DNA of 57,901 nucleotides, from NCBI GenBank assembly GCA_046597065.1, contig JBKJLI010000003.1:356841-414741 (forward strand), written 5' to 3'. Shown here piece after piece: positions 6,628 to 36,871 of the stretch. Numbering within the stretch: the stretch's first letter is position 1; every line of letters starts with the position of its first letter. A program made the position numbers and the translations under genes. Source of the stretch: Candidatus Saccharimonadia bacterium (lineage in GTDB: Bacteria > Patescibacteriota > Saccharimonadia > UBA4664 > SCTI01). The notes beneath the pieces were generated by a model that saw only the letters and a list, made by a program, of their open reading frames with translations, was not told the DNA's origin and ran no database searches.

Positions 6628-6948
6628 ATGAGCACCGCTACTATCGCCGTTAGGCGCAACCAAAACTTGTATCGCAGTAAATCTGATCTACATCTTGGCC
6701 CGGTATCAAGCAGCGTTGTAATGGTCGCAGTTGTGGCAGTTTTGGCCCTGTTGTACCTTACTCAGATCACTAAAACCAGCGTGTTTGGTTATCAGTTAAC
6801 CGAACTGCAGACTCAACGTACGCAGGCCGTCTCCGCCAAGCAAGAGCTAGAGGTCGAGGCCGCCCGTTTAACCTCAATTCAACAAATACAAAACTCCAAA
6901 GCCGTAAGCGGTCTGGTGCCCACCGGCCAGGTTAGTTACGCCAAGTAA
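6628..6948 (+). CDS. FtsL-like small bitopic cell-division protein
   Basis: Lies between rsmH and ftsI. One TM helix (VVMVAVVAVLALLYL) followed by a coiled-coil-like segment. The start could also be 6577. Confidence 0.6.
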   Translation: MSTATIAVRRNQNLYRSKSDLHLGPVSSSVVMVAVVAVLALLYLTQITKTSVFGYQLTELQTQRTQAVSAKQELEVEAARLTSIQQIQNSKAVSGLVPTGQVSYAK

Positions 6949-6971
6949 TCGCTAGAACTGGTGTCGAGCCT

Positions 6972-8696
6972 ATGAATCCACGCCGCCGCTTATTTACACT
7001 TAGGTTGCTGCTGTTTGGTTTGGGCATTTTGGTACTGGCCCGGTTAGGCTATTTGCAGATTGTGCAACATGGTTACTACACCGCCCTAGCCGCTGGGGAG
7101 CACCAACGTAAGTATGAGCTTCCGGCAGCTCGTGGACAGATCTATTTGCAAGACGGTGACACTAAAGTGCCGCTAGCGCTTAACCAGACGTTAAAGCTAA
7201 TGTACGCCGACCCTAGCATTATTGTTGATAAGGCCGATACCGCCCGCAAGCTTTCGGCAGTTACCGGCCAGCCGCCCGAACGTTACATTGATGCCATGTC
7301 GAAGGCCAAGGAGTACGCTGTGCTTCAAGCCCGGCTAGATGAAGCTACCGCCACCAAAATCAAGAACTTGCGCTTAACCGGAGTTGGCTTAATTAACCAA
7401 ACCTACCGCACTTATCCCGAAGGGTCACTTGCTAGCCAGTCGCTTGGTTTCGTAAATAATGATGGCCAAGGGCAGTATGGATTAGAAGGCTTCTTAAACA
7501 AAGAGCTCAGCGGCCTGCCGGGGCTACTAAACGCTAAGACCGATACCAACGGTGTACCGATCGCGACTAGTGACAACCTCAGTAAGGCTCCAGTAGATGG
7601 CACCAGTGTGGTTTTAACGCTTGATCGAAATATCCAGGCCCAGGCCGAAAAATTCTTAAAAGCCGGAGTTGAGACGGTGCGGGCTGATTCTGGCAGTGTA
7701 GTGGTGATTGACCCGAATACTGGTGCGGTTAAGGCCATGGCCAATTTTCCCACCTACGACCCAAACGATTATGCCAAAACCACCGATTATAGCCGATTTA
7801 GCAACGCCATTGTTAGCGACCGCTTTGAGCCTGGTAGTGGATTCAAAGTTTTTACCATGGCGGCTGGTTTGGACAGTGGCAAAATAAAGTCTGAAACCAC
7901 TTATAACGACACTGGGTGTATCGAAATCAGCCGTCATCAAATCTGCAACGCCGCCAACCATAAAGATGGACCTGATACCAATATGACCAAAGTGCTACGT
8001 GACTCACTAAACACGGGAGTCGTGTTTGTTCTAAAATCGTTGGGCAGCGATCCTAATGCCATAACCAGCGCTGGTAAAAAACTATTTTACAGCTACATCA
8101 GCGACCGATTTCACTTTGGTCGCAAAACCGGCATCGAGCAGGCAGGTGAGGCGGCCGGTGTGGTTAACCCACCTTCAAGTAACGACACCAATTATGCCAA
8201 TATGACCTTTGGTCAGGGCTTGTCGGTTACGCTTTTGCAGATGACCAGCGCCGTTGGAGCAATTGCCAATGGGGGAACGCTTTACCAGCCCTACTTGGTT
8301 GCCAAGCGCACCAAAGTGGATGGCACTACTCAAACCACTTCCCCCAAAGCTACCGTAAACAATGTCATGTCAAAAACCGCCGCTCATGACTTAACTGAGA
8401 TGATGAAGGTGGTGGTACAACATGGTTCCGGGTACTTAGCATACACTCCCGGTTACAATATCGCTGGCAAAACCGGCACCGCCCAAATACCCAACCCATC
8501 TGGGCCCGGCTACTTAGATAACCAAAATATCGGTACTTTTGTTGGATTTGCGCCGGCAGAAGCGCCCAAATTTGTAGTAATGGTGCGGATTAACAAACCC
8601 AAGATCGAGGGCTTTGCCGAGAAAACTACAGTACCGGTGTTTGCTAACCTGACCCGTTGGTTACTTCAGTATTACTCGGTTCCGCCAAGTGGTTAA
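6972..8696 (+). CDS. ftsI: Penicillin-binding protein 2B/3 type transpeptidase (FtsI)
   Basis: N-terminal TM, PBP dimerisation region, transpeptidase motifs SGFK (SxxK), SLN (SxN) and KTGTA (KTG). Confidence 0.9.
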   Translation: MNPRRRLFTLRLLLFGLGILVLARLGYLQIVQHGYYTALAAGEHQRKYELPAARGQIYLQDGDTKVPLALNQTLKLMYADPSIIVDKADTARKLSAVTGQPPERYIDAMSKAKEYAVLQARLDEATATKIKNLRLTGVGLINQTYRTYPEGSLASQSLGFVNNDGQGQYGLEGFLNKELSGLPGLLNAKTDTNGVPIATSDNLSKAPVDGTSVVLTLDRNIQAQAEKFLKAGVETVRADSGSVVVIDPNTGAVKAMANFPTYDPNDYAKTTDYSRFSNAIVSDRFEPGSGFKVFTMAAGLDSGKIKSETTYNDTGCIEISRHQICNAANHKDGPDTNMTKVLRDSLNTGVVFVLKSLGSDPNAITSAGKKLFYSYISDRFHFGRKTGIEQAGEAAGVVNPPSSNDTNYANMTFGQGLSVTLLQMTSAVGAIANGGTLYQPYLVAKRTKVDGTTQTTSPKATVNNVMSKTAAHDLTEMMKVVVQHGSGYLAYTPGYNIAGKTGTAQIPNPSGPGYLDNQNIGTFVGFAPAEAPKFVVMVRINKPKIEGFAEKTTVPVFANLTRWLLQYYSVPPSG

Positions 8697-12964: not shown

Positions 12965-13357
12965 GGGCAGTATGACCTTAGCAACTCCTCTACTTCACCT
13001 CCCTGTTCGGTTTTTGTTTAGATAGAAATAAATTTGGTTTGGCTAGAGAGAAAAATAATTAGTTAGATTTAAGAATGGGGGAGATGGTGGGGTAGTAGCA
13101 TTTATTATCAGTAGATTAACTATCAAGCAATTAAATGCCGAGGCTGGGCTAACGACTTAAGCTTAATAAATCGGCTAAGTTCAGCATAAGTCGAATTTAC
13201 AACGGGCCATCGGCAGCCATCATCTCAAACATAACCTATCAATATGAAGATAAAACTAAGACTAAATACGGGGCATTAAGGCGGCTATTAACCCTTTACT
13301 AAGCCATAACTATAAGTATTAAAGGTACAAACAGTCACGGAAACAATAAATATATCT

Positions 13358-13385
13358 AGTTCGCAAAATATACATTGTGCGACAC
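13358..13385. other. dif-like Xer recombination site candidate
   Basis: AGTTCGCAAAATATACATTGTGCGACAC. Its reverse complement GTGTCGCACAATGTATATTTTGCGAACT matches E. coli dif GGTGCGCATAATGTATATTATGTTAAAT at 20/28 positions by hand count, and at 16/18 over the core CGCA.AATGTATATT.TG. It lies in the ORF-free gap where the + and - gene blocks converge. Confidence 0.5.
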
Positions 13386-13578
13386 TATCAATAAACTCTC
13401 CTCTTAGTCTTTAAGTATGCGCTCGGCGCTTATTATTGATACTAGCCCCGACATCTACGCGTTGCTATTCCCCTTTGTGACATATACATACACTAACTGG
13501 CGCTAATTACGTATAGGCATTAACAATACGTATAATCTTTCGGCTAAAATACCCAATCTGTCCAACGGGTATATAAAT

Positions 13579-16284
13579 TTAGCGTTTAGCCGCAGCCGGC
13601 CTTCTGTTGTCTCGGTTACGCCCTGCGGAGCTATTGCTGTGGTTTCGGTTGCTCCCAGACCCGCCTGAGCTTCGATTTCCACTATTATGGCTGTTGCCTC
13701 GCGCGGCCGAATTAGATGGAGGGTTTGGATTCTTTAGTCCACCCAAAAAGCTGTTTTCAGTGTTCGGTTTATGTTCAGTAGTCGAATTAGCTGAGCTAGA
13801 GTTCTCCCCACCCGCCGAACCGCCATTCATGGCATCGTTATCAGCCTGTCCACTACTCCAATAGGCAATCGCCTTTTCAACGTCCTCGCGGCGCGATCCA
13901 AAGTTAGCGCGAGTATTTTCCATAATTTGTGGCGTAAGATCGTTATCGGGTTCTGGCATACGTAACGTGGTTGCCGAAAATGCTGGCATCTTTTCGCCAT
14001 TCACACTCATACTGATAACAATATGCTGGTTGTGTAGTTTAATTAAGTCGCTCGATTCAAAGTCCGGTTCAAAATACTTTTCGAGAGGCTTGGCATCTTC
14101 TGCCCCAACTCTAAAGGTGATGATAGAGCCAACGTTACCAAATACAGCGTCACGTACCGTCTCAGGCATCTGCGAGATATATTGGTTGGCCACAGTTAGG
14201 TTAAGGCCATACTTACGCGCTTCACTCAAAATCACGGCAAAGCTATCGGTAGCAAAGTTTTGGAATTCATCGACATATAAGTAGAACGGACGACGCTGCT
14301 CTAGCGGAACATTGGCGCGGCTCATTGCGGCCAGCTGTATTTTAGTCACCATCATCGCACCTAGGATGGCAGCATTATCCTCGCCGATCTGCCCGTGCGA
14401 AAGATTAACAATTAAAATCTTACCCTCATCCATAACTTGTCGTAAATCAAAGGCTGACTTGGGCTGACCAATAATATTGCGAATAACTGGGTTGGCGGTA
14501 AAGGCTCCAACTTTGTTAAGTACCGGCGCGACCGCCTCGTTGGCAAATTTGTCGTTCCAGCTGGCAAACTCGTTCACCCAGAAGTTACGCACTACTGGGT
14601 CTTTAATCTCCTTGATAACCTTTTTACGGAACTCCTTTTCGGTAAGCATGCGCGTTATGCCGAGTAGCGTTGAATCGGGATAGTCAAGCAACGCCAAAAT
14701 GGTGTAACGCAGAATGTATTCCAACCGAGGGCCCCAGCTGTCGAACATCCGCTTTAGCACACCAATCATTTCCGAAGAGATGTTGTTTTTCATGACCGGG
14801 TCGTTAACCTCAAGGGGGTTAAAGGCAATCGGGTTGTCGCGGTCGGTTGGGTTAAAATAGATGACGTCCTTAAGTCTGTGCTCTGGAATAAACTGCAGCA
14901 TATCGGTAGCAAAGTCGCCGTGGGGGTCAACAATCGCAAAACCTTCATTATGGTAAATATCCGAGAGAGTTAGAAGGTTAAGTAACTTAGACTTACCGGT
15001 GCCGGTTTGGCCAATTATGTATAAATGTCGCCCACGGTCGACTTTGCGTTTTATTCCAAACTTGTTAGATACACCACGGAAGTTAGTTAGACCGAACAAA
15101 CTGACTTCGCCTGGTTCTACCGTACCCTCTACTGGTAGATTCGGAGGTGGCTCCGAGGTTTTTACGGTCGACCACACCATGCTAGGTGTCTCTACGCTCT
15201 TATGGGGTAAGTGATAAATGCTTGCTAGCTCTTCAATGTTTAAGGTGTCTCCCCTATCTGCAAACAAACGCGCACGGTAATCTTGCAGACCATCGGGTCC
15301 TTTATTAATCCCCTCCGCCATAAAGCCGTTTAGATTGGTAGTATTAAACTGCTTAAAACCACCAACAATCGCTTGGATCCGACTTTTGGCCACATCGGGG
15401 TTGTTACCAAGATAGGTCACTCGCACCTTAACCTGGTAGCCAAGTTTTTGAGCCTTTTCTTCTACCGCCTTGATCACCGTCTGCTGGCCGGTAGATAGCT
15501 TGCTGTCGTCCTTTTTACCATCCTTGGGGGCCTCTGGCGGCACAAACAAGGCTTTAAAAAAGTTACTAAGAACGTAAATTGGTAATTCGATTAACTGTGG
15601 TAACACCTGCCGGTGTAGCGATACCGACTTGCCGTTCTTAACCTCATCTATAAAAGCGTGGCCCTTGTCTTGCCAATCGTCCTCAACTGGCCGTGCTAGA
15701 ATTTGGATCCACATCTCCTCGCCGGCTTGTTCCAGCTTGGCTAGCACTGCTGTAATGCCGGCCAGTGGGTCGACTTCAAAGGTGGCAAAGGTCTTTATCG
15801 GTAATACATCGGCCTTGGTTAAGTGCAGCTCAGTGGTATATGCATGGCGCTCCCCTACCTTGGTGCGGGCGTAATCTTCGACTCCTTCGCGGATTCGTAC
15901 GTTGGGGTACTGGGCGTAAATTTGACCCTCAACAAAATCCTTTAGGTGCTTAGGTGTCCAGACGTAAAAATGAATCCGCCCTTCGATTGAGGCTAGCTCT
16001 AGGCTGATGTGTTCTTGCAGCGATCCCTCGCGATCAAGTTCTGCTTTGGGGCGCAATATGCCGTGTAAGCTGGCGAACATCTGCTCAGCTGAAAGCTCTT
16101 TTTTTTCATTGTCTTTCGGTACCTCAATCATCAGCATGATGTGATCGGTTTGGTTAACCCATTGCTCGCGGCGGCGATTTTGCCAGATTAAATAACCTAA
16201 AATTAGGGCAATGACTACCCAGCCATAAAGCTTAAATAGCACAATTCCCAAAATTTGTATCACGCCGATGAGTATCCCTCCCAA
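13579..16284 (-). CDS. Membrane-anchored P-loop ATPase of the VirD4/TraD (type IV coupling protein) / FtsK-HerA superfamily, with a low-complexity S/N/G-rich tail
   Basis: Two N-terminal TM helices. Walker A IIGQTGTGKSKL, Walker B-like RPFYLYVDEFQNF, then RKYGLNLTVANQY. TTG start 5 nt after the stop of the upstream gene. Confidence 0.7.
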   Translation of the reverse strand: MGGILIGVIQILGIVLFKLYGWVVIALILGYLIWQNRRREQWVNQTDHIMLMIEVPKDNEKKELSAEQMFASLHGILRPKAELDREGSLQEHISLELASIEGRIHFYVWTPKHLKDFVEGQIYAQYPNVRIREGVEDYARTKVGERHAYTTELHLTKADVLPIKTFATFEVDPLAGITAVLAKLEQAGEEMWIQILARPVEDDWQDKGHAFIDEVKNGKSVSLHRQVLPQLIELPIYVLSNFFKALFVPPEAPKDGKKDDSKLSTGQQTVIKAVEEKAQKLGYQVKVRVTYLGNNPDVAKSRIQAIVGGFKQFNTTNLNGFMAEGINKGPDGLQDYRARLFADRGDTLNIEELASIYHLPHKSVETPSMVWSTVKTSEPPPNLPVEGTVEPGEVSLFGLTNFRGVSNKFGIKRKVDRGRHLYIIGQTGTGKSKLLNLLTLSDIYHNEGFAIVDPHGDFATDMLQFIPEHRLKDVIYFNPTDRDNPIAFNPLEVNDPVMKNNISSEMIGVLKRMFDSWGPRLEYILRYTILALLDYPDSTLLGITRMLTEKEFRKKVIKEIKDPVVRNFWVNEFASWNDKFANEAVAPVLNKVGAFTANPVIRNIIGQPKSAFDLRQVMDEGKILIVNLSHGQIGEDNAAILGAMMVTKIQLAAMSRANVPLEQRRPFYLYVDEFQNFATDSFAVILSEARKYGLNLTVANQYISQMPETVRDAVFGNVGSIITFRVGAEDAKPLEKYFEPDFESSDLIKLHNQHIVISMSVNGEKMPAFSATTLRMPEPDNDLTPQIMENTRANFGSRREDVEKAIAYWSSGQADNDAMNGGSAGGENSSSANSTTEHKPNTENSFLGGLKNPNPPSNSAARGNSHNSGNRSSGGSGSNRNHSNSSAGRNRDNRRPAAAKR

Positions 16285-16289
16285 GGTGG

Positions 16290-17321
16290 TTACCTCAACG
16301 CATAAGTGGCTTTGGCCACTCGTTCAAACTGGTCTTTTTCTTGAAGGTTCAAAACAATAGTGGTGGTTTTAACCTGGCGCTTTTTAAGCACACGGCGCAC
16401 GATCTCATCTTTATGCAGTGGCGACTCGGCCTTTAAAACGTCGGTAATAATATCGGCGACAGTTCCAGGGGTATAGCCCCAATCAGCCAGGGCGTAAATG
16501 CCTCGCCCTACTAGAACGAACCGAGGGTCTTTAATTAGTTCATTGTGTACCGCTTGCACGGTAACGTTGCGCTTTCGACTGCCCAAATCAGCAATTCGGC
16601 CGGCAATCTCGCTAAAGTGAAGTGGCTGACCATGTTTGTTTAGAACTAAGTAGGTTTTATCGCGGATCGAACGTGGGTTAACTTCTGGCCAGTGGCTAAG
16701 CCCCCACTGTCCATCGAGCTCTTCGATATGCTTAGAAGCTCGAGCAAGATTTTCAATGGTCACACGCTGCTCGTTAGGCGCGGCTTTGGAATGTAAACTA
16801 TCAATCGACATTGGCTTGCCCACACGCTTTAAGTGACCGGTTAGCTGGTCACTAAGGGTTTTTAACTTGGTGCGATCGTATTCAGGTAGCAGGCTGATGG
16901 CGGCGTGGTAGTGGTCGCTGTCGTCAATTACATGAACCGAGGGAGCCAACGTAGCTAAAAAGCTAATATAAGTTTGCTCCGACGGAGTCTTGGCGCCAAT
17001 TGCCGTAGCAACTTCCTTTAGTAGGCGGATATTGCCGCCAGCTTCTAAATGGCGCTTAAGTAAAGCATCAATCTGCTGTAGCTCAGGGGTGGCTAGAGCT
17101 TGAAGCTTAGTGGTTGCGCTTTTTTCGATCTGGCGAACACGCTCGCGGGTTATACCAAACTGGCCACCGATTTTCTCAAGTGTCTGGCGCTTTTCGGCAC
17201 CCAGGCTGTAGCGTGCGGCTACAATTTGACGATCGCGCTCATGCCGCAGCGCACCCAAAATCGCTTCGGCGACGGTGCGGTAATCAAGCTCAGGCTGTAC
17301 AGATGTAGATTCGGTATTCAT
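16290..17321 (-). CDS. DNA-binding protein with a sigma-70 region-4-like HTH and a C-terminal HARE-HTH-like domain
   Basis: RQIVAARYSLGAEKRQTLEKIGGQFGITRERVRQIEKSATTKL (sigma r4 pattern). C-terminal LHFSEIAGRIADL...VHNELIKDPRFVLVGRGIYALADWGY (HARE-HTH pattern). Confidence 0.65.
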   Translation of the reverse strand: MNTESTSVQPELDYRTVAEAILGALRHERDRQIVAARYSLGAEKRQTLEKIGGQFGITRERVRQIEKSATTKLQALATPELQQIDALLKRHLEAGGNIRLLKEVATAIGAKTPSEQTYISFLATLAPSVHVIDDSDHYHAAISLLPEYDRTKLKTLSDQLTGHLKRVGKPMSIDSLHSKAAPNEQRVTIENLARASKHIEELDGQWGLSHWPEVNPRSIRDKTYLVLNKHGQPLHFSEIAGRIADLGSRKRNVTVQAVHNELIKDPRFVLVGRGIYALADWGYTPGTVADIITDVLKAESPLHKDEIVRRVLKKRQVKTTTIVLNLQEKDQFERVAKATYALR

Positions 17322-17387: not shown

Positions 17388-17416
17388 ATTATAAAATATG
17401 AATTCAAAAGTGTCAA
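17388..17416 (-). promoter_or_regulatory. Perfect-consensus sigma70 promoter (TTGACA-17 nt-TATAAT) for the HTH/ATPase operon
   Basis: On the - strand: TTGACA = complement of 17411-17416, TATAAT = complement of 17388-17393, spacer exactly 17 nt, about 60 nt upstream of the ATG at 17321. Confidence 0.7.
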
Positions 17417-33351: not shown

Positions 33352-33475
33352 TAATTACGGTTCACATCCCGCCAGGGAGAGGTCTTAACGGATGCACATC
33401 TCTCAATAACACATACCACTCACTTACCTCCCCTATGATTTGGTTCCAATTCGATAACAGATGGTCTACCAATTG
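33352..33475 (+). repeat. Intergenic repeat, copy 1 (about 120 nt)
   Basis: Aligns by eye with 33991-34111. The core ATACCACTCACTTACCTCCCCTATGATTTGGTTCCAATTCGA is about 90% identical to copy 2, and about 80% over the 95-nt segment 33381-33475 vs 34017-34111 (hand alignment). Confidence 0.75.
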
Positions 33476-33519
33476 CAATTACGCTATCGACCGCAGGGTC
33501 GCTTTGTTATTATGGTTTT

Positions 33520-33993
33520 ATGATATTCATTACAGGCGCTGCTAGCGCAGGGAAAACCTCATTAATTGATCGACTAAAAGCGCAGCTACCGAGTGATAAA
33601 TTCGACATTCATGATATAGATGAAGCCGACAAGTGGGAGGACGACTATGAAGCTTGGCGCAATGCAAAAATTGAGCAATCGCTTAAGCAGTCCATCCAAA
33701 ATAAGAAAAACGGAATTGAAACAATCCTTTGTGGGATTATATATCCGGAAGACGTCGCAAAGTGTCATTCTTTTCATGATGCGGGGCCAATACGCTACAT
33801 CCTTCTAGATGCTTCGCCGGAAGCTTTAAAAGCAAGGTTTTATATGCGCTTAGAAGGTCGGATAAATAGACAAATTGAAATCAGCAACGAGATTAAAAAA
33901 GAAATTTTAGGGATTGAGGGCGCAGATATTATAGACACCTCGCCACTTTCGACAGAAAACATCACTAGGTTGGTTACGAAAAAGTTTCAGTAA
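33520..33993 (+). CDS. P-loop NTPase / small-molecule or nucleotide kinase-like protein (157 aa)
   Basis: Walker A at the extreme N-terminus, MIFITGAASAGKTSLIDRL; size and layout match AAA_33/NMP-kinase-like proteins. A+T-rich. Bracketed by the two repeat copies. Confidence 0.6.
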   Translation: MIFITGAASAGKTSLIDRLKAQLPSDKFDIHDIDEADKWEDDYEAWRNAKIEQSLKQSIQNKKNGIETILCGIIYPEDVAKCHSFHDAGPIRYILLDASPEALKARFYMRLEGRINRQIEISNEIKKEILGIEGADIIDTSPLSTENITRLVTKKFQ

Positions 33994-34111
33994 TTAGTTT
34001 TCATAAGGCCCGGGTAGGTCATTAACGGATATACACTCTTAAGTAACTCATACCACTCATTCACCTCCCCTATGATGTGGTGCCAATTCGACATTAGATG
34101 ATTTACCATTG
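33991..34111 (+). repeat. Intergenic repeat, copy 2
   Basis: Starts at the TAA stop of the kinase ORF. See copy 1. A weak third relative may start at the stop of the 31916-32101 ORF (32101-32158: GTCTTA..AATAAC..CTACCTC..ATTTATG). Confidence 0.75.
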
Positions 34112-34232
34112 TAAAAAACGCATTAATATGTTAATATAACGTTTAATCCCTGGTCTATTGGCCTGGTGGCTCCTTTGGGGGTAACGCGAGTCTTTGCGCA
34201 CACAGAGACACTTTGACAGAAAGGCGGATCTA

Positions 34233-34583
34233 ATGATCCTCCAGCCTGGTGATACGATCCAGATCATCAACGGTCCATCGAAGTTCGACTTCGCTATGGC
34301 TTTCGTCGATCGCTTCGGGCCGTCCGACGATGTGCGCTTTAAGCGCGAACAGCGTTCGGTGCTGTTCACAACTGGGTTCAGGACCGCGGTCGGCGACAAT
34401 GCTGTCGCGCTTTGCGCCAAGGTCAGAATCGTTACCCTGAGGCACGAAAACGGTACCGGCCACGGCTGGTACTTCGAAGGGGTCCTTACGGGTACTGGTT
34501 CTTTTACCTCACCCGCCACAAGCGAGCGGATCAAGGGTTTCTACGACTCCCGTTCGCATAAGGGATTCTTTGAAGCAAACTAA
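34233..34583 (+). CDS. Hypothetical small beta-rich protein (116 aa)
   Basis: ATG at 34233 follows GAAAGG. Translation MILQPGDTIQIINGPSKFDF...GWYFEGVLTG...IKGFYDSRSHKGFFE looks protein-like, whereas the antisense ORF 34103-34534 is S/R/P-rich. G+C-rich. Confidence 0.55.
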   Translation: MILQPGDTIQIINGPSKFDFAMAFVDRFGPSDDVRFKREQRSVLFTTGFRTAVGDNAVALCAKVRIVTLRHENGTGHGWYFEGVLTGTGSFTSPATSERIKGFYDSRSHKGFFEAN

Positions 34584-34690: not shown

Positions 34691-35098
34691 TTATTTAGTT
34701 GGGTGGACTTCGCAGATGTGGGGGCCGCCGGCCAGCCACTCACTGCCGTAACGATAAGCCAAGGCATCGGCACTGTCGGGCCCCCAACTGCCAGATTTAT
34801 AGCGATCAATTGGGCGCTTATCAGCTCCCCAGGCGTCTAATACCGGCTGCAGTAAGCGCCAACTTGCTAGCACCTCTACGCTGGTAGCAAATAGCGACTG
34901 ATCGCCACGAATGGCATCTATTTAAACGCGTTGGTAGGCATCTGGGTGATCTTCGCCAAAGTTGCCCTGGTAACAAAACTCCATTTGCACCGGCTCAACA
35001 TCATCCGAAAATCCGGGTTTTTTGGCCAACAGTTTTAATGAAATCCCCTCGTTGGGTTGAATTCCAATTACCCTTAAATTGGCGAACTTGCATAGGAA
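34691..35098 (-). pseudogene. zwf: Glucose-6-phosphate dehydrogenase remnant: C-terminal ~135 codons only, with an in-frame TAA
   Basis: Hand translation: FANLRVIGIQPNEGISLKLLAKKPGFSDDVEPVQMEFCYQGNFGEDHPDAYQRV*IDAIRGDQSLFATSVEVLASWRLLQPVLDAWGADKRPIDRYKSGSWGPDSADALA...W. This matches the conserved G6PD C-terminus (IQP.EGI, AYE.L..D...GD.TLF, Y.AGSWGP). Stop at 34922-34924. The N-terminal ~330 codons are absent. Confidence 0.8.
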
Positions 35099-35100
35099 CA

Positions 35101-35129
35101 TTGATTAATACTACAAGATGTGGTATAAG
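35101..35129 (+). promoter_or_regulatory. Candidate promoter TTGATT-17 nt-TATAAG at the zwf truncation point
   Basis: -35 at 35101-35106, -10 at 35124-35129. Begins about 3 nt beyond the last zwf-like codon. Confidence 0.5.
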
Positions 35130-35197: not shown

Positions 35198-35572
35198 ATG
35201 CCTGCATCAACGATGTCCCGTGCCTACAAGCTCGCAATCATCTACGTTGTAGGGATGATTGTTACAGCAGCGCTGATCAGCTTAGTGAGCTCATTCCAGC
35301 ACACCAGCAGCAAAGAGCTGAACTCAGCTGCAAAGGCTGGATTGGCCATGCGCTACCCGAGTGTAGTATCTGTGAGGCTTGAAACCCACGACAATGGTTT
35401 CCCGGGTATGGCCAAGATTTACGGGTCCGGCACCTTTAACTACGCCGGGGCATCTTGCCAGCTCCCCTTCAGCAAGATTGGTGGGGCCTACAGGATTCAG
35501 AACACCGGCGCCAAGGGCGCATGTGCTCGGATCCCCCGGGCGATCAACAATCAGAACCCTTTTGGGGACTAG
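35198..35572 (+). CDS. Hypothetical membrane-anchored/secreted small protein (124 aa)
   Basis: N-terminal TM/signal anchor LAIIYVVGMIVTAALISLVSS, then a Gly/Ala-rich globular part containing two Cys. Own promoter and a strong terminator. Confidence 0.55.
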   Translation: MPASTMSRAYKLAIIYVVGMIVTAALISLVSSFQHTSSKELNSAAKAGLAMRYPSVVSVRLETHDNGFPGMAKIYGSGTFNYAGASCQLPFSKIGGAYRIQNTGAKGACARIPRAINNQNPFGD

Positions 35573-35585
35573 CGGCATTGGCCGC

Positions 35586-35620
35586 GGGGTGGTACGCCTA
35601 ACGTGTACCACCCCTTTTAT
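35586..35620 (+). terminator. Rho-independent terminator
   Basis: GGGGTGGTAC (35586-35595) pairs with GTACCACCCC (35605-35614), a 10-bp perfect stem, then TTTTATT. Confidence 0.85.
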
Positions 35621-35633
35621 TCGTTATTATTTA

Positions 35634-35662
35634 TTGACACAATGCACTTTGGGGCGTATAAA
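35634..35662 (+). promoter_or_regulatory. Near-consensus promoter TTGACA-17 nt-TATAAA driving the ORF-less segment
   Basis: -35 at 35634-35639, -10 at 35657-35662, 17-nt spacer. Starts 14 nt after the preceding terminator. Confidence 0.6.
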
Positions 35663-35668
35663 AATAGA

Positions 35669-36256
35669 GCTGTGTCACCTGCCGAGTCGCGAAACGATTT
35701 GTGCTGCAGGTAAGGTAGAATCCTAAAGAGGAGAGTTCACAGCAATCCTCTCGGCGAACTTAGCTCGTTCTAAGCGTCCGGAGACCAAACTGCTCTTCGG
35801 AGCATAAGGGTCCGCTGCGACGGTGCCCCAAACCGGGGCTGCGTTCAATCCGAGCCTCATCGGCTCCCAACTACGCTGCGGGGATGTTCTCCCGTTGCCA
35901 GGTGCGACCGCTAAAGTCGTACTCCCAATGTCCGTTGGGTTTACTCTCGAATTCGGACAATCGATCACGCATCCAGCGTGGCAGATTACATTCGAGGGTG
36001 CTCCTCTTTCGCGGGATCACTCCCAAGCTCCCGCTTAAGCGCCAGACGACGTCAAGCCGCAAGGCGAGGCATAGGGTCGTTTGACGGAGCGCCCCCGCGG
36101 GCGCCTCAACAAGGGGGTTACTCCCCGCCAATACTTAGTCTGCATCTAATGCAGGCAAGGCACTATCTACTTCCAAAGCACGTGTCGCCCTTGCTCACAG
36201 GGTTTTTCTCGAGTGTGAAGCCGGTCCAGACAGACTGACTCGAGGATATATTTTTT
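35669..36256 (+). ncRNA. Candidate large structured ncRNA (about 590 nt, possibly extending to 36341), class unknown
   Basis: No ORF over 86 codons; five overlapping junk-like ORFs on both strands. G+C-rich relative to its flanks. At least 14 hand-folded helices, including nested CGUC/GACC/GCUC-UUCG-GAGC/GGUC/GACG (35775-35822), GCCCC/GGGGC (35825-35839), GAGCC/GGCUC (35852-35866), GUGCGAC/GUCGUAC (35902-35922), CCCAA/UUGGG (35924-35939), CUCUCGAA/UUCGAGGG (35944-35998) enclosing CACGC/GCGUG, GCGGGA/UCCCGC (36011-36034), CGUCAA/UUGACG (36050-36086) enclosing GCC-GCAA-GGC, GCGCCC/GGGCGC (36089-36104), CUGCAU/AUGCAG (36140-36154). Confidence 0.5.
36208..36256 (+). terminator. Hairpin + T-run, candidate 3' end of the ORF-less transcript
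   Basis: CTCGAGT (36208-36214) pairs with ACTCGAG (36238-36244), followed by GATATATTTTTT. Confidence 0.45.
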
Positions 36257-36313
36257 ACCCACTTGTTGGGTGCCAACCTTTCAGCGGCTCCTCCCAGCTG
36301 TGCTGAGAGAGAA

Positions 36314-36341
36314 GGGCCGCCGCTATAAAAAGCGGCGGCCC
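36314..36341. terminator. Perfect 11-bp GC hairpin
   Basis: GGGCCGCCGCT-ATAAAA-AGCGGCGGCCC. No clean T-run on either strand, so it may be a second terminator or a protective 3' stem. Confidence 0.4.
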
Positions 36342-36431
36342 TAAACTATTTGCAATCATTATTAACCATGAGCTTTGCTTCCACCCTAACTGGCAATACG
36401 CTAATGGGCATCCGCTAATTATTTAGCAACC

Positions 36432-36460
36432 AAAAACGACCCCTTGTGGGGCCGTTTTTT
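36432..36460 (-). terminator. Rho-independent terminator of the RRM-protein gene
   Basis: On the - strand: AAAAAACGGCCCC-ACAA-GGGGTCGTTTTT, 16 nt after the stop at 36477. Confidence 0.75.
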
Positions 36461-36476
36461 ATTGGCTTAGCGGTTG

Positions 36477-36737
36477 CTAGAAGCGCTTTTCAGGTGGGCG
36501 AGCCACGCTGACAGCAATCTGGCGACCATCAAGATCGTGACCATCGAGCGCCTTAATGGCGGCCTCGGCCTCGGCGTCGGTCGACATTTCAACAAAACCA
36601 AAGCCTTTTGAGCGGTTGGTTTCGCGATCTGTGATAACGCGAGCCGAAGAAACGGTTCCGTGAGCTGCAAACAGCTCCTGGAGTTCGCTATCGGTGGTGG
36701 CGTAAGGCAGGCGCCCTACGTATAAACGGTTAGACAT
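36477..36737 (-). CDS. RNA-binding protein, single RRM domain
   Basis: RNP-2 LYVGRL and RNP-1 KGFGFVEM. 86 aa. Confidence 0.92.
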   Translation of the reverse strand: MSNRLYVGRLPYATTDSELQELFAAHGTVSSARVITDRETNRSKGFGFVEMSTDAEAEAAIKALDGHDLDGRQIAVSVARPPEKRF

Positions 36738-36871
36738 TTGAATTCCTTGTTAGTAATCGCAGTCGACCTTTATAATTCTCTAGGCGATCTACGAACTAAC
36801 GCGTAATTCTCAGCTATCGAATGATTCCTGCTCGCCCCCACTCTACACCTGTCTAGGCAAAAAGTAAATGC

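Follow-up and report, generated by a model that had tools for sequence, protein, structure and literature searches.

What does a hairpin-rich stretch of bacterial DNA without a long open reading frame (ORF) encode, if it encodes anything? This question is raised by positions 35634-36342 of a stretch of 57,901 nt from the genome of a Candidatus Saccharimonadia bacterium. We call the whole 58-kb stretch the window, and all positions refer to it unless stated otherwise. The locus lies between an orphan small ORF of the secreted type (119/124 aa) upstream and a gene for an RRM-domain protein downstream. The initial annotation proposed that it is the gene of a large structured non-coding RNA (ncRNA). 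The features of the single sequence which led to this proposal hold: the stretch has no coding signal, it begins with a promoter-like site, it carries hairpins followed by T-runs and it folds better than chance on the + strand. The proposed likeness to known families of large RNAs, on the other hand, does not hold. We tentatively read the stretch as a stand-alone, lineage-specific ncRNA gene on the + strand and put the probability of this reading at roughly 0.4; an RNA unit of this kind would best account for the promoter-like site, for an excess of structure on one strand only and for the fact that no coding signal is seen at all. DNA left over from the rearrangement which destroyed the neighbouring zwf gene is about as likely.

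The features that delimit the candidate unit are collected in Table 1.

Table 1. Features of the candidate unit and its borders, with positions in the window
Feature	Position	Strand	Remarks
Intrinsic terminator of the upstream small gene (35198/35213-35572)	35586-35614	+	12-pair stem with 8 G-C pairs, then TTTTATT; 5' boundary of the unit
Sigma-70-type promoter-like site TTGACA-17-TATAAA	35634-35662	+	A+T-rich tract before it; putative start near 35669
Candidate ncRNA body	35669-36256	+	~590 nt with an end at the first hairpin plus T-run; subject of the folding, hairpin, coding, Pfam and Rfam results
Hairpin plus T-run	36206-36256	+	Most terminator-like 3' end on the + strand; 9-pair stem around an inner hairpin, then UAUAUUUUUU
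Possible 3' extension	36257-36342	+	Partners of predicted long-range closing helices (36276-36312) and palindromic hairpin
Terminator hairpin of the convergent RRM-protein gene (36477-36737, -)	36431-36458	-	7 pairs including one G-U, then TTTTT

The initial annotation had pointed to a strong terminator upstream, to the promoter-like site at the start of the segment and to a hairpin plus T-run near 36208-36256, and all three are present. The promoter-like site stands directly after the terminator of the upstream gene. As its -10 hexamer has no final T, it is missing from the list of our consensus scanner. Sites which match the promoter pattern with at most one mismatch are nevertheless rare, as only two are found in 58 kb (0.26 expected). 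The second of these sites is a perfect consensus, TTGACA-17-TATAAT at 17388-17416 on the - strand, ahead of the gene 16290-17321, whose product has sigma-70 region 4 and HARE-HTH domains. Thus, this lineage uses canonical sigma-70-type promoters.

At the 3' side two ends come into consideration. The stem at 36206-36256 is predicted with pair probabilities of 0.97-0.99; the terminator scanner skipped this hairpin, its loop being longer than 8 nt. Further downstream are the partners of the two predicted closing helices, 35748-35765/36296-36312 and 35807-35824/36276-36292, which have probabilities of 0.6-0.9. They are followed by the palindromic hairpin at 36313-36342, which was correctly recognised as perfect in the initial annotation but comprises 12 bp and not 11 bp. 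It is G+C-rich, has a 6-nt loop of A and T and is without a good U-tail on either strand. Against Rfam it yields noise-level matches only, namely to models of small RNAs (NsiR4, STnc240). The palindrome could be a 3' stabilising hairpin, a second terminator of the RRM gene or a protein-binding site. For read-through on the + strand, the terminator hairpin of the RRM gene (36431-36458) would be the outer limit.

Is the stretch a protein gene, either live or decayed? As described before, no ORF lying wholly within it exceeds 86 aa, and five ORFs overlap each other on both strands, with ORFs of 66-86 aa on either strand. The codon-usage scores of the ORFs are all negative (-0.05 to -0.35), compared with +0.18 to +0.48 for the genes of the window and +0.24 for the zwf pseudogene. 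The stretch has no period-3 signal, and none of its ORFs of at least 40 aa has a Shine-Dalgarno motif before the start. Among the ORFs of at least 18 aa only one, of 37 aa (36163-36276, -), has a Shine-Dalgarno-like motif, GGAGG 10 nt upstream of a TTG start. It is a weak candidate, not hydrophobic and without other support. Recoding of stop codons is unlikely as no frame is left with a single type of stop. Each frame of the + strand contains 4-6 stops per ~200 codons, about as many as expected at random. Any gene that decayed here would thus have to be old, yet the promoter-like site and the hairpins have stayed intact.

The database searches agree with these statistics. Pfam gave no match in the stretch, in its ORFs or in the six frames, the only match being the adjoining G6PD_C remnant of zwf outside the stretch. 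Among 5.8 billion proteins, a word-indexed search with one complete frame detected no match. An exhaustive phmmer search with the 86-aa ORF of the - strand against 1.84 billion representatives returned a single protein (P0121, E = 4.6e-5); we reject this match as chance, as one match of 33 residues with 36% identity is counted five times in a repeat protein. No match was obtained with tblastn against plasmids. Likewise, zwf, opcA, pgl and tsaD from a relative, used as tblastn queries, matched nothing inside the stretch; a remnant of the zwf N-terminus, of opcA, of pgl or of tsaD is thus ruled out, and only the C-terminal 116 codons of zwf survive, outside the stretch. The initial annotation had called for the exclusion of a decayed gene, and neither the six-frame Pfam search nor tblastn nor the protein searches of two frames revealed frame-consistent similarity to proteins. 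The public gene caller is silent in the stretch as well: at the second copy of the locus (see below), it leaves the interval from the upstream small ORF to the RRM gene without a call. A search for spurious gene calls in homologous regions was also negative, which is a weak test as the gene caller calls none in the stretch itself. In summary, neither a live gene nor one that decayed recently is indicated.

The structure of the stretch was then compared with that of shuffled and of neighbouring DNA. Perfect hairpins of at least 5 bp occur 10 times within 35665-36305 and 3.5 ± 1.9 times in dinucleotide shuffles (P = 0.01). The dense hairpins reported earlier are thus borne out at about three times the shuffle frequency, and the UUCG (35796-35799) and GCAA (36059-36062) tetraloops are both where they had been placed. 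With this count the stretch ties for the maximum among 358 sections of the 58 kb (mean 3.4 ± 2.2); the section which ties with it is 33761-34401. The folding energy of 35665-36260, from which the terminal hairpin is excluded, corresponds to a z-score of -3.9 on the + strand and of -0.4 on the - strand (150 shuffles). Over 98 single strands of sections of the same length the mean is -0.73 with a standard deviation of 1.28, and the section holding the stretch is the most extreme. The ensemble diversity of the + strand is also below that of the shuffles, with only 1 of 40 shuffles lower, which is not the case for the - strand. The strand-specific excess in energy rests on G-U pairs and is thus a property at the level of RNA. 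We conclude that the folding and hairpin signal goes beyond chance and is real but not overwhelming. The G+C content had been taken as a further argument, in analogy to stable RNAs. It is indeed higher in the stretch (0.56-0.59) than in the window as a whole (mean 0.495); the argument is weak, however, because the coding neighbour upstream (35250-35700) is equally G+C-rich.

We searched for known RNA families with the 4227 family models of Rfam. At the gathering thresholds, cmscan detects two tRNAs only in the whole window. With relaxed filters and E up to 10, the 1.5-kb query 35300-36800 gives nothing but sub-threshold noise on the terminator hairpins. RNase P RNA, transfer-messenger RNA (tmRNA), signal recognition particle RNA, 6S RNA and group I and group II introns are likewise without an Rfam match, and ARAGORN finds no tmRNA. 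These negatives agree with the initial annotation, which had seen no signatures of RNase P, tmRNA or group II introns. It had also been reminded of ROOL, GOLLD, HEARO/omega-RNA, OLE and raiA; for this resemblance there is no model match even at E ≤ 10. Six-frame and ORF scans detect no domain of an IscB/IsrB/TnpB-type nuclease beside the stretch, and there are no partner genes of large RNAs, no reverse transcriptase and no nuclease nearby. As far as covariance models can tell, membership in a known RNA family is rejected.

A comparison with homologues is hampered by the isolation of the genome. Its glycyl-tRNA synthetase has at most 61-63% identity to those of Saccharibacteria and other Patescibacteria genomes, and for the neighbouring PLD-type protein the top relative among 5.8 billion proteins has at most 52% identity. 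In general, the proteins of the organism are 50-63% identical to their nearest relatives. From these low identities we conclude that the organism belongs to a deep, Saccharibacteria-like branch of the candidate phyla radiation and has no close sequenced relative. The sole other copy of the locus is found in a Logan assembly (L089) and is 100% identical over 13.1 kb, and thus there is no strain variation in the stretch. The genome is also present in the sequencing run SRR31159421. With blastn we found no homologue among phages and plasmids, nor did translated-pattern scans with two frames find one in viral, genome and metagenome contigs. These scans of the large collections used exact translated patterns. 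Scans with the RRM flanks against the contig collections found no homologous locus, and the upstream ORF, scanned against the same viral, genome and metagenome contigs, had no relative there. Finally, nhmmer and blastn against about 170 loci, including the syntenic loci and 80 neighbourhoods of RRM genes, gave no homologue. Because the genome is so isolated, this absence of homologues says little either way.

A unit of the same layout, however, is present in the nearest relative (L001), whose PLD protein is the one with 52% identity. There, a co-directional small gene with its own promoter and terminator is followed by a promoter-like site (TTGACG-17-TATAAA at 14849-14877 of L001), by ORF-less DNA, by a terminator and by a convergent gene. 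The unit (14325-14877, -) comprises 521 ORF-less nt, its longest ORF has 89 aa and it ends with a hairpin plus T-run. Its folding z-score is -5.4 (100 shuffles); over a 601-nt span of the gap the values are -4.1 for the - strand and -2.4 for the + strand. It has no match in Rfam, and its flanking genes differ from those of the window unit. It may itself be regarded as a second candidate for an RNA gene. A further ORF-less, hairpin-rich gap of 655 nt lies between convergent genes in a related genome (L002, 13349-14005; identical in L003 at 6831-7486). It has weak folding z-scores (-2.4 and -1.3) and no clear promoter, and homology to the window unit is rejected since alignments, k-mers and nhmmer are at chance level. 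The recurrence of such units in this lineage modestly favours real RNA genes which evolve fast.

The window is chromosomal and carries glyS, topA, der, gltX, mreB and genes for penicillin-binding proteins. All relatives examined share the block gltX-DUF3048-DPBB-LPG synthase-Rpf-PLD. In the nearest relative the RRM gene follows after PLD, and beyond this point the genomes diverge. Upstream, the stretch is adjoined by a truncated pseudogene of zwf, coding for glucose-6-phosphate dehydrogenase (34736-35083, -; ORF fragments 34691-35101). It consists of the last ~116 codons of the C-terminal domain with one in-frame stop and is still recognised by Pfam (G6PD_C, E = 1.9e-28), with 48% identity to an intact relative. 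The N-terminal two-thirds are absent; the missing 5' part would have extended to about 36200. Neither this part nor opcA or pgl has left a trace at the locus, and therefore the DNA from about 35100 to the RRM terminator replaced it. That zwf is truncated and that opcA and pgl are missing is in line with a reduced genome which has lost the oxidative pentose-phosphate pathway. In a related genome (L086, 6883-8474) the gene calls divide zwf into two ORFs of 384 and 157 aa which overlap, with opcA and pgl behind them; a frameshift or an error of the assembly, and not a truly split gene, is the probable cause.

The same patch contains two orphan ORFs, 34194-34583 (+, 129 aa) and 35198-35572 (+, 124 aa), with low codon scores, without a Pfam family and with a G+C content at third codon positions (GC3) of 0.66-0.67. 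For the 124-aa ORF no relatives were found in the scanned collections, the 129-aa ORF having been left out of the scans. The composition of the small ORFs suggests a foreign origin, and they look horizontally acquired. Direct repeats of ~125 nt (33360-33484 and 33997-34121; 71% identity overall, 83% within 94 nt) stand on either side of a small P-loop kinase-like gene at 33520-33993; together they may form a small cassette that was duplicated or is mobile. A tRNA-Glu gene is located 3.8 kb upstream of the stretch. The window contains no second copy of the tRNA-Glu 3' end as an att-like repeat, and no integrase is found among the island ORFs; a tRNA-integrated genomic island is thus rejected. 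Recombinase and replication genes are missing nearby, as are terminal repeats, tandem repeats and repeated motifs at the stretch itself. There are no phage or prophage genes around the stretch and no similarity to phage or viral collections. At some distance, a 901-aa protein (13579-16284, -) has weak similarity to coupling proteins of the TraD/VirD4 type and adjoins an ORF-poor gap of 615 bp (12965-13578).

Several of these observations, and some others, weigh against an ncRNA gene. Without a homologue there is evidence neither from conservation nor from covariation, and structure statistics of single sequences are poor evidence for a functional RNA (PMC8250186). One coding section of the window likewise reaches a folding z-score of -3.9, and differences of about 3 between the strands are also seen elsewhere in the window. 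The -10 hexamer TATAAA is without the highly conserved final T. Furthermore, the predicted closing helices would fall past the best terminator, so that the proposed architecture appears internally unsettled. The unit of the nearest relative has no sequence similarity to the window unit, with local and global alignment, k-mers and nhmmer all at chance. Homology of the two units is thus unproven and may be absent, and a common way of making debris would also explain why such units recur. Finally, the stretch is situated at a synteny break, where the relatives carry other genes, and the patch holds the zwf pseudogene together with the foreign-looking genes. Recent gene decay and rearrangement at the locus therefore make leftover DNA a serious alternative.

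How do the possible explanations compare? That the stretch is non-functional spacer DNA from a recent rearrangement or horizontal acquisition, maybe with what is left of the promoter and terminator of a gene now extinct, is to us as credible as an ncRNA gene. On this view the hairpins and the promoter-like site would serve no function today. It adjoins a zwf gene of which the 5' two-thirds are replaced with no trace of opcA and pgl, synteny with the relatives ends at the RRM gene, and the neighbouring ORFs look foreign. The raised G+C content is common to its neighbours and the nearby section 33761-34401 is as rich in hairpins; that no homologue and no Rfam match were found is also consistent with spacer DNA. 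However, bacteria of the candidate phyla radiation have tiny genomes with little room for useless DNA, and in such compact genomes 0.9 kb of it should be short-lived. Nor would one expect of debris that the folding excess is confined to the strand which bears the promoter, that a promoter-like site so rare in this genome is present and that no coding signal is left although the zwf remnant is still easily recognised.

The other explanations are far less probable. We give little credit to one or several live small protein genes or an unrecognised orphan gene. ORFs of 66-86 aa are present on both strands, one of them (35871-36131, -) resembles the foreign-looking neighbours in its GC3 (0.70), and the 37-aa ORF (36276-36163, -) has its GGAGG 10 nt before the TTG; the negative codon scores, the lack of a period-3 signal and of a Shine-Dalgarno motif plus start codon at the large ORFs, the lack of any family or homologue apart from the chance phmmer match and the silence of the gene caller all argue against genes. 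Slightly less credible still is an element acting at the DNA level, that is, a cluster of palindromes for protein binding, recombination or replication. Such an element would account for the excess of perfect Watson-Crick hairpins, which exists regardless of the strand (10 compared with 3.5), and for the perfect 12-bp palindrome at 36313-36342, but not for an energy excess which is strongly strand-specific and depends on G-U pairs; moreover, repeated motifs, tandem or terminal repeats and an att-like tRNA repeat are absent, and no recombinase or replication gene is nearby. Least probable of all, in our view, is a highly divergent RNA of a known family (ROOL, GOLLD, OLE, raiA, RNase P or the remnant of a group II intron) which is too far from the Rfam seeds to be detected. 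In size and in its many capped hairpins the stretch broadly resembles the large ornate RNAs, and in a deep-branching organism with proteins only 50-63% identical to their nearest relatives such a divergence is conceivable. Against this, none of the 4227 models matches even at E ≤ 10, no tmRNA is found and no partner genes of those families are nearby.

For the stretch as an ncRNA gene we suggest the following scheme. RNA polymerase would start near 35669 from the TTGACA-17-TATAAA site. The transcript would have ~590 nt if it ended at the hairpin plus U-run at 36206-36256, or ~675 nt if it extended to the 12-bp hairpin at 36313-36342. It could adopt a multi-branched fold with a small 5' domain (35669-35743) and then a large domain of many short capped hairpins. 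The predicted helices include 35825-35839, 35852-35866, 35965-35981, 36011-36034, 36043-36083, 36138-36156 and 36206-36246. The transcript would act as RNA and not as a message, and a trans-acting role in protein binding or as a scaffold appears most likely. Transcription, selection on the fold and any function are what we infer here, and a link to the adjacent RRM RNA-binding protein would be pure speculation. That the stretch is the first member of a new class of large (~0.6 kb) structured RNAs in a deep-branching, Saccharibacteria-like lineage is a rather unlikely outcome. It would perhaps be one of several fast-evolving, lineage-specific RNAs, which is possible because the nearest relative has a unit with the same layout and an unrelated sequence.

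Few bacterial RNAs combine a length above about 500 nt with an elaborate fold, and the new classes OLE, GOLLD, ROOL and raiA have each opened new biology. None of them is known to be specific to the candidate phyla radiation. If the unit in the window and that of the nearest relative are true RNAs, these episymbionts would maintain large RNAs which diverge rapidly. If, instead, the stretch is leftover DNA, the lesson is that promoter-to-terminator, hairpin-rich, ORF-less DNA beside a pseudogene should not be named a structured RNA from one sequence.

How does the candidate compare with known systems? For a ROOL or GOLLD RNA one would expect a phage or prophage context, often with tRNA genes beside it. 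The candidate shares with them the size class of ~0.6-0.8 kb, the stand-alone and ORF-less organisation, the many short capped helices and a tRNA gene within a few kb; unlike them, it has no match to a covariance model, no phage or prophage genes around it and no homologues. Structures of ROOL and GOLLD, which are large ornate RNAs of bacteria and phages, have been determined by cryo-electron microscopy (PMC12286853). Both classes are defined by many covarying representatives, whereas the candidate is known from one sequence. The OLE RNA is similar in that the candidate also has ~600 nt, is predicted to be highly structured and stands alone. OLE is known only from anaerobic extremophilic Firmicutes, where its partner gene oapA is adjacent. 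The candidate in contrast has no match to the OLE model, and its neighbours are the small secreted-type ORF and the RRM protein. With the HEARO/omega-RNAs of IscB-type nucleases it has in common a length of several hundred nt, a predicted structure and the lack of an ORF, but again there is no model match and no IscB/IsrB/TnpB-like gene is adjacent. Screens of G+C-rich intergenic regions accept an RNA motif only with covarying homologues (PMC8632094, PMC5737381). Unlike the accepted motifs of these screens, the stretch has no homologues and remains an unranked single-sequence candidate; it is, however, much like the leads of such screens (PMC8632094, PMC5737381), namely a long, relatively G+C-rich and ORF-less intergenic region with a predicted structure.

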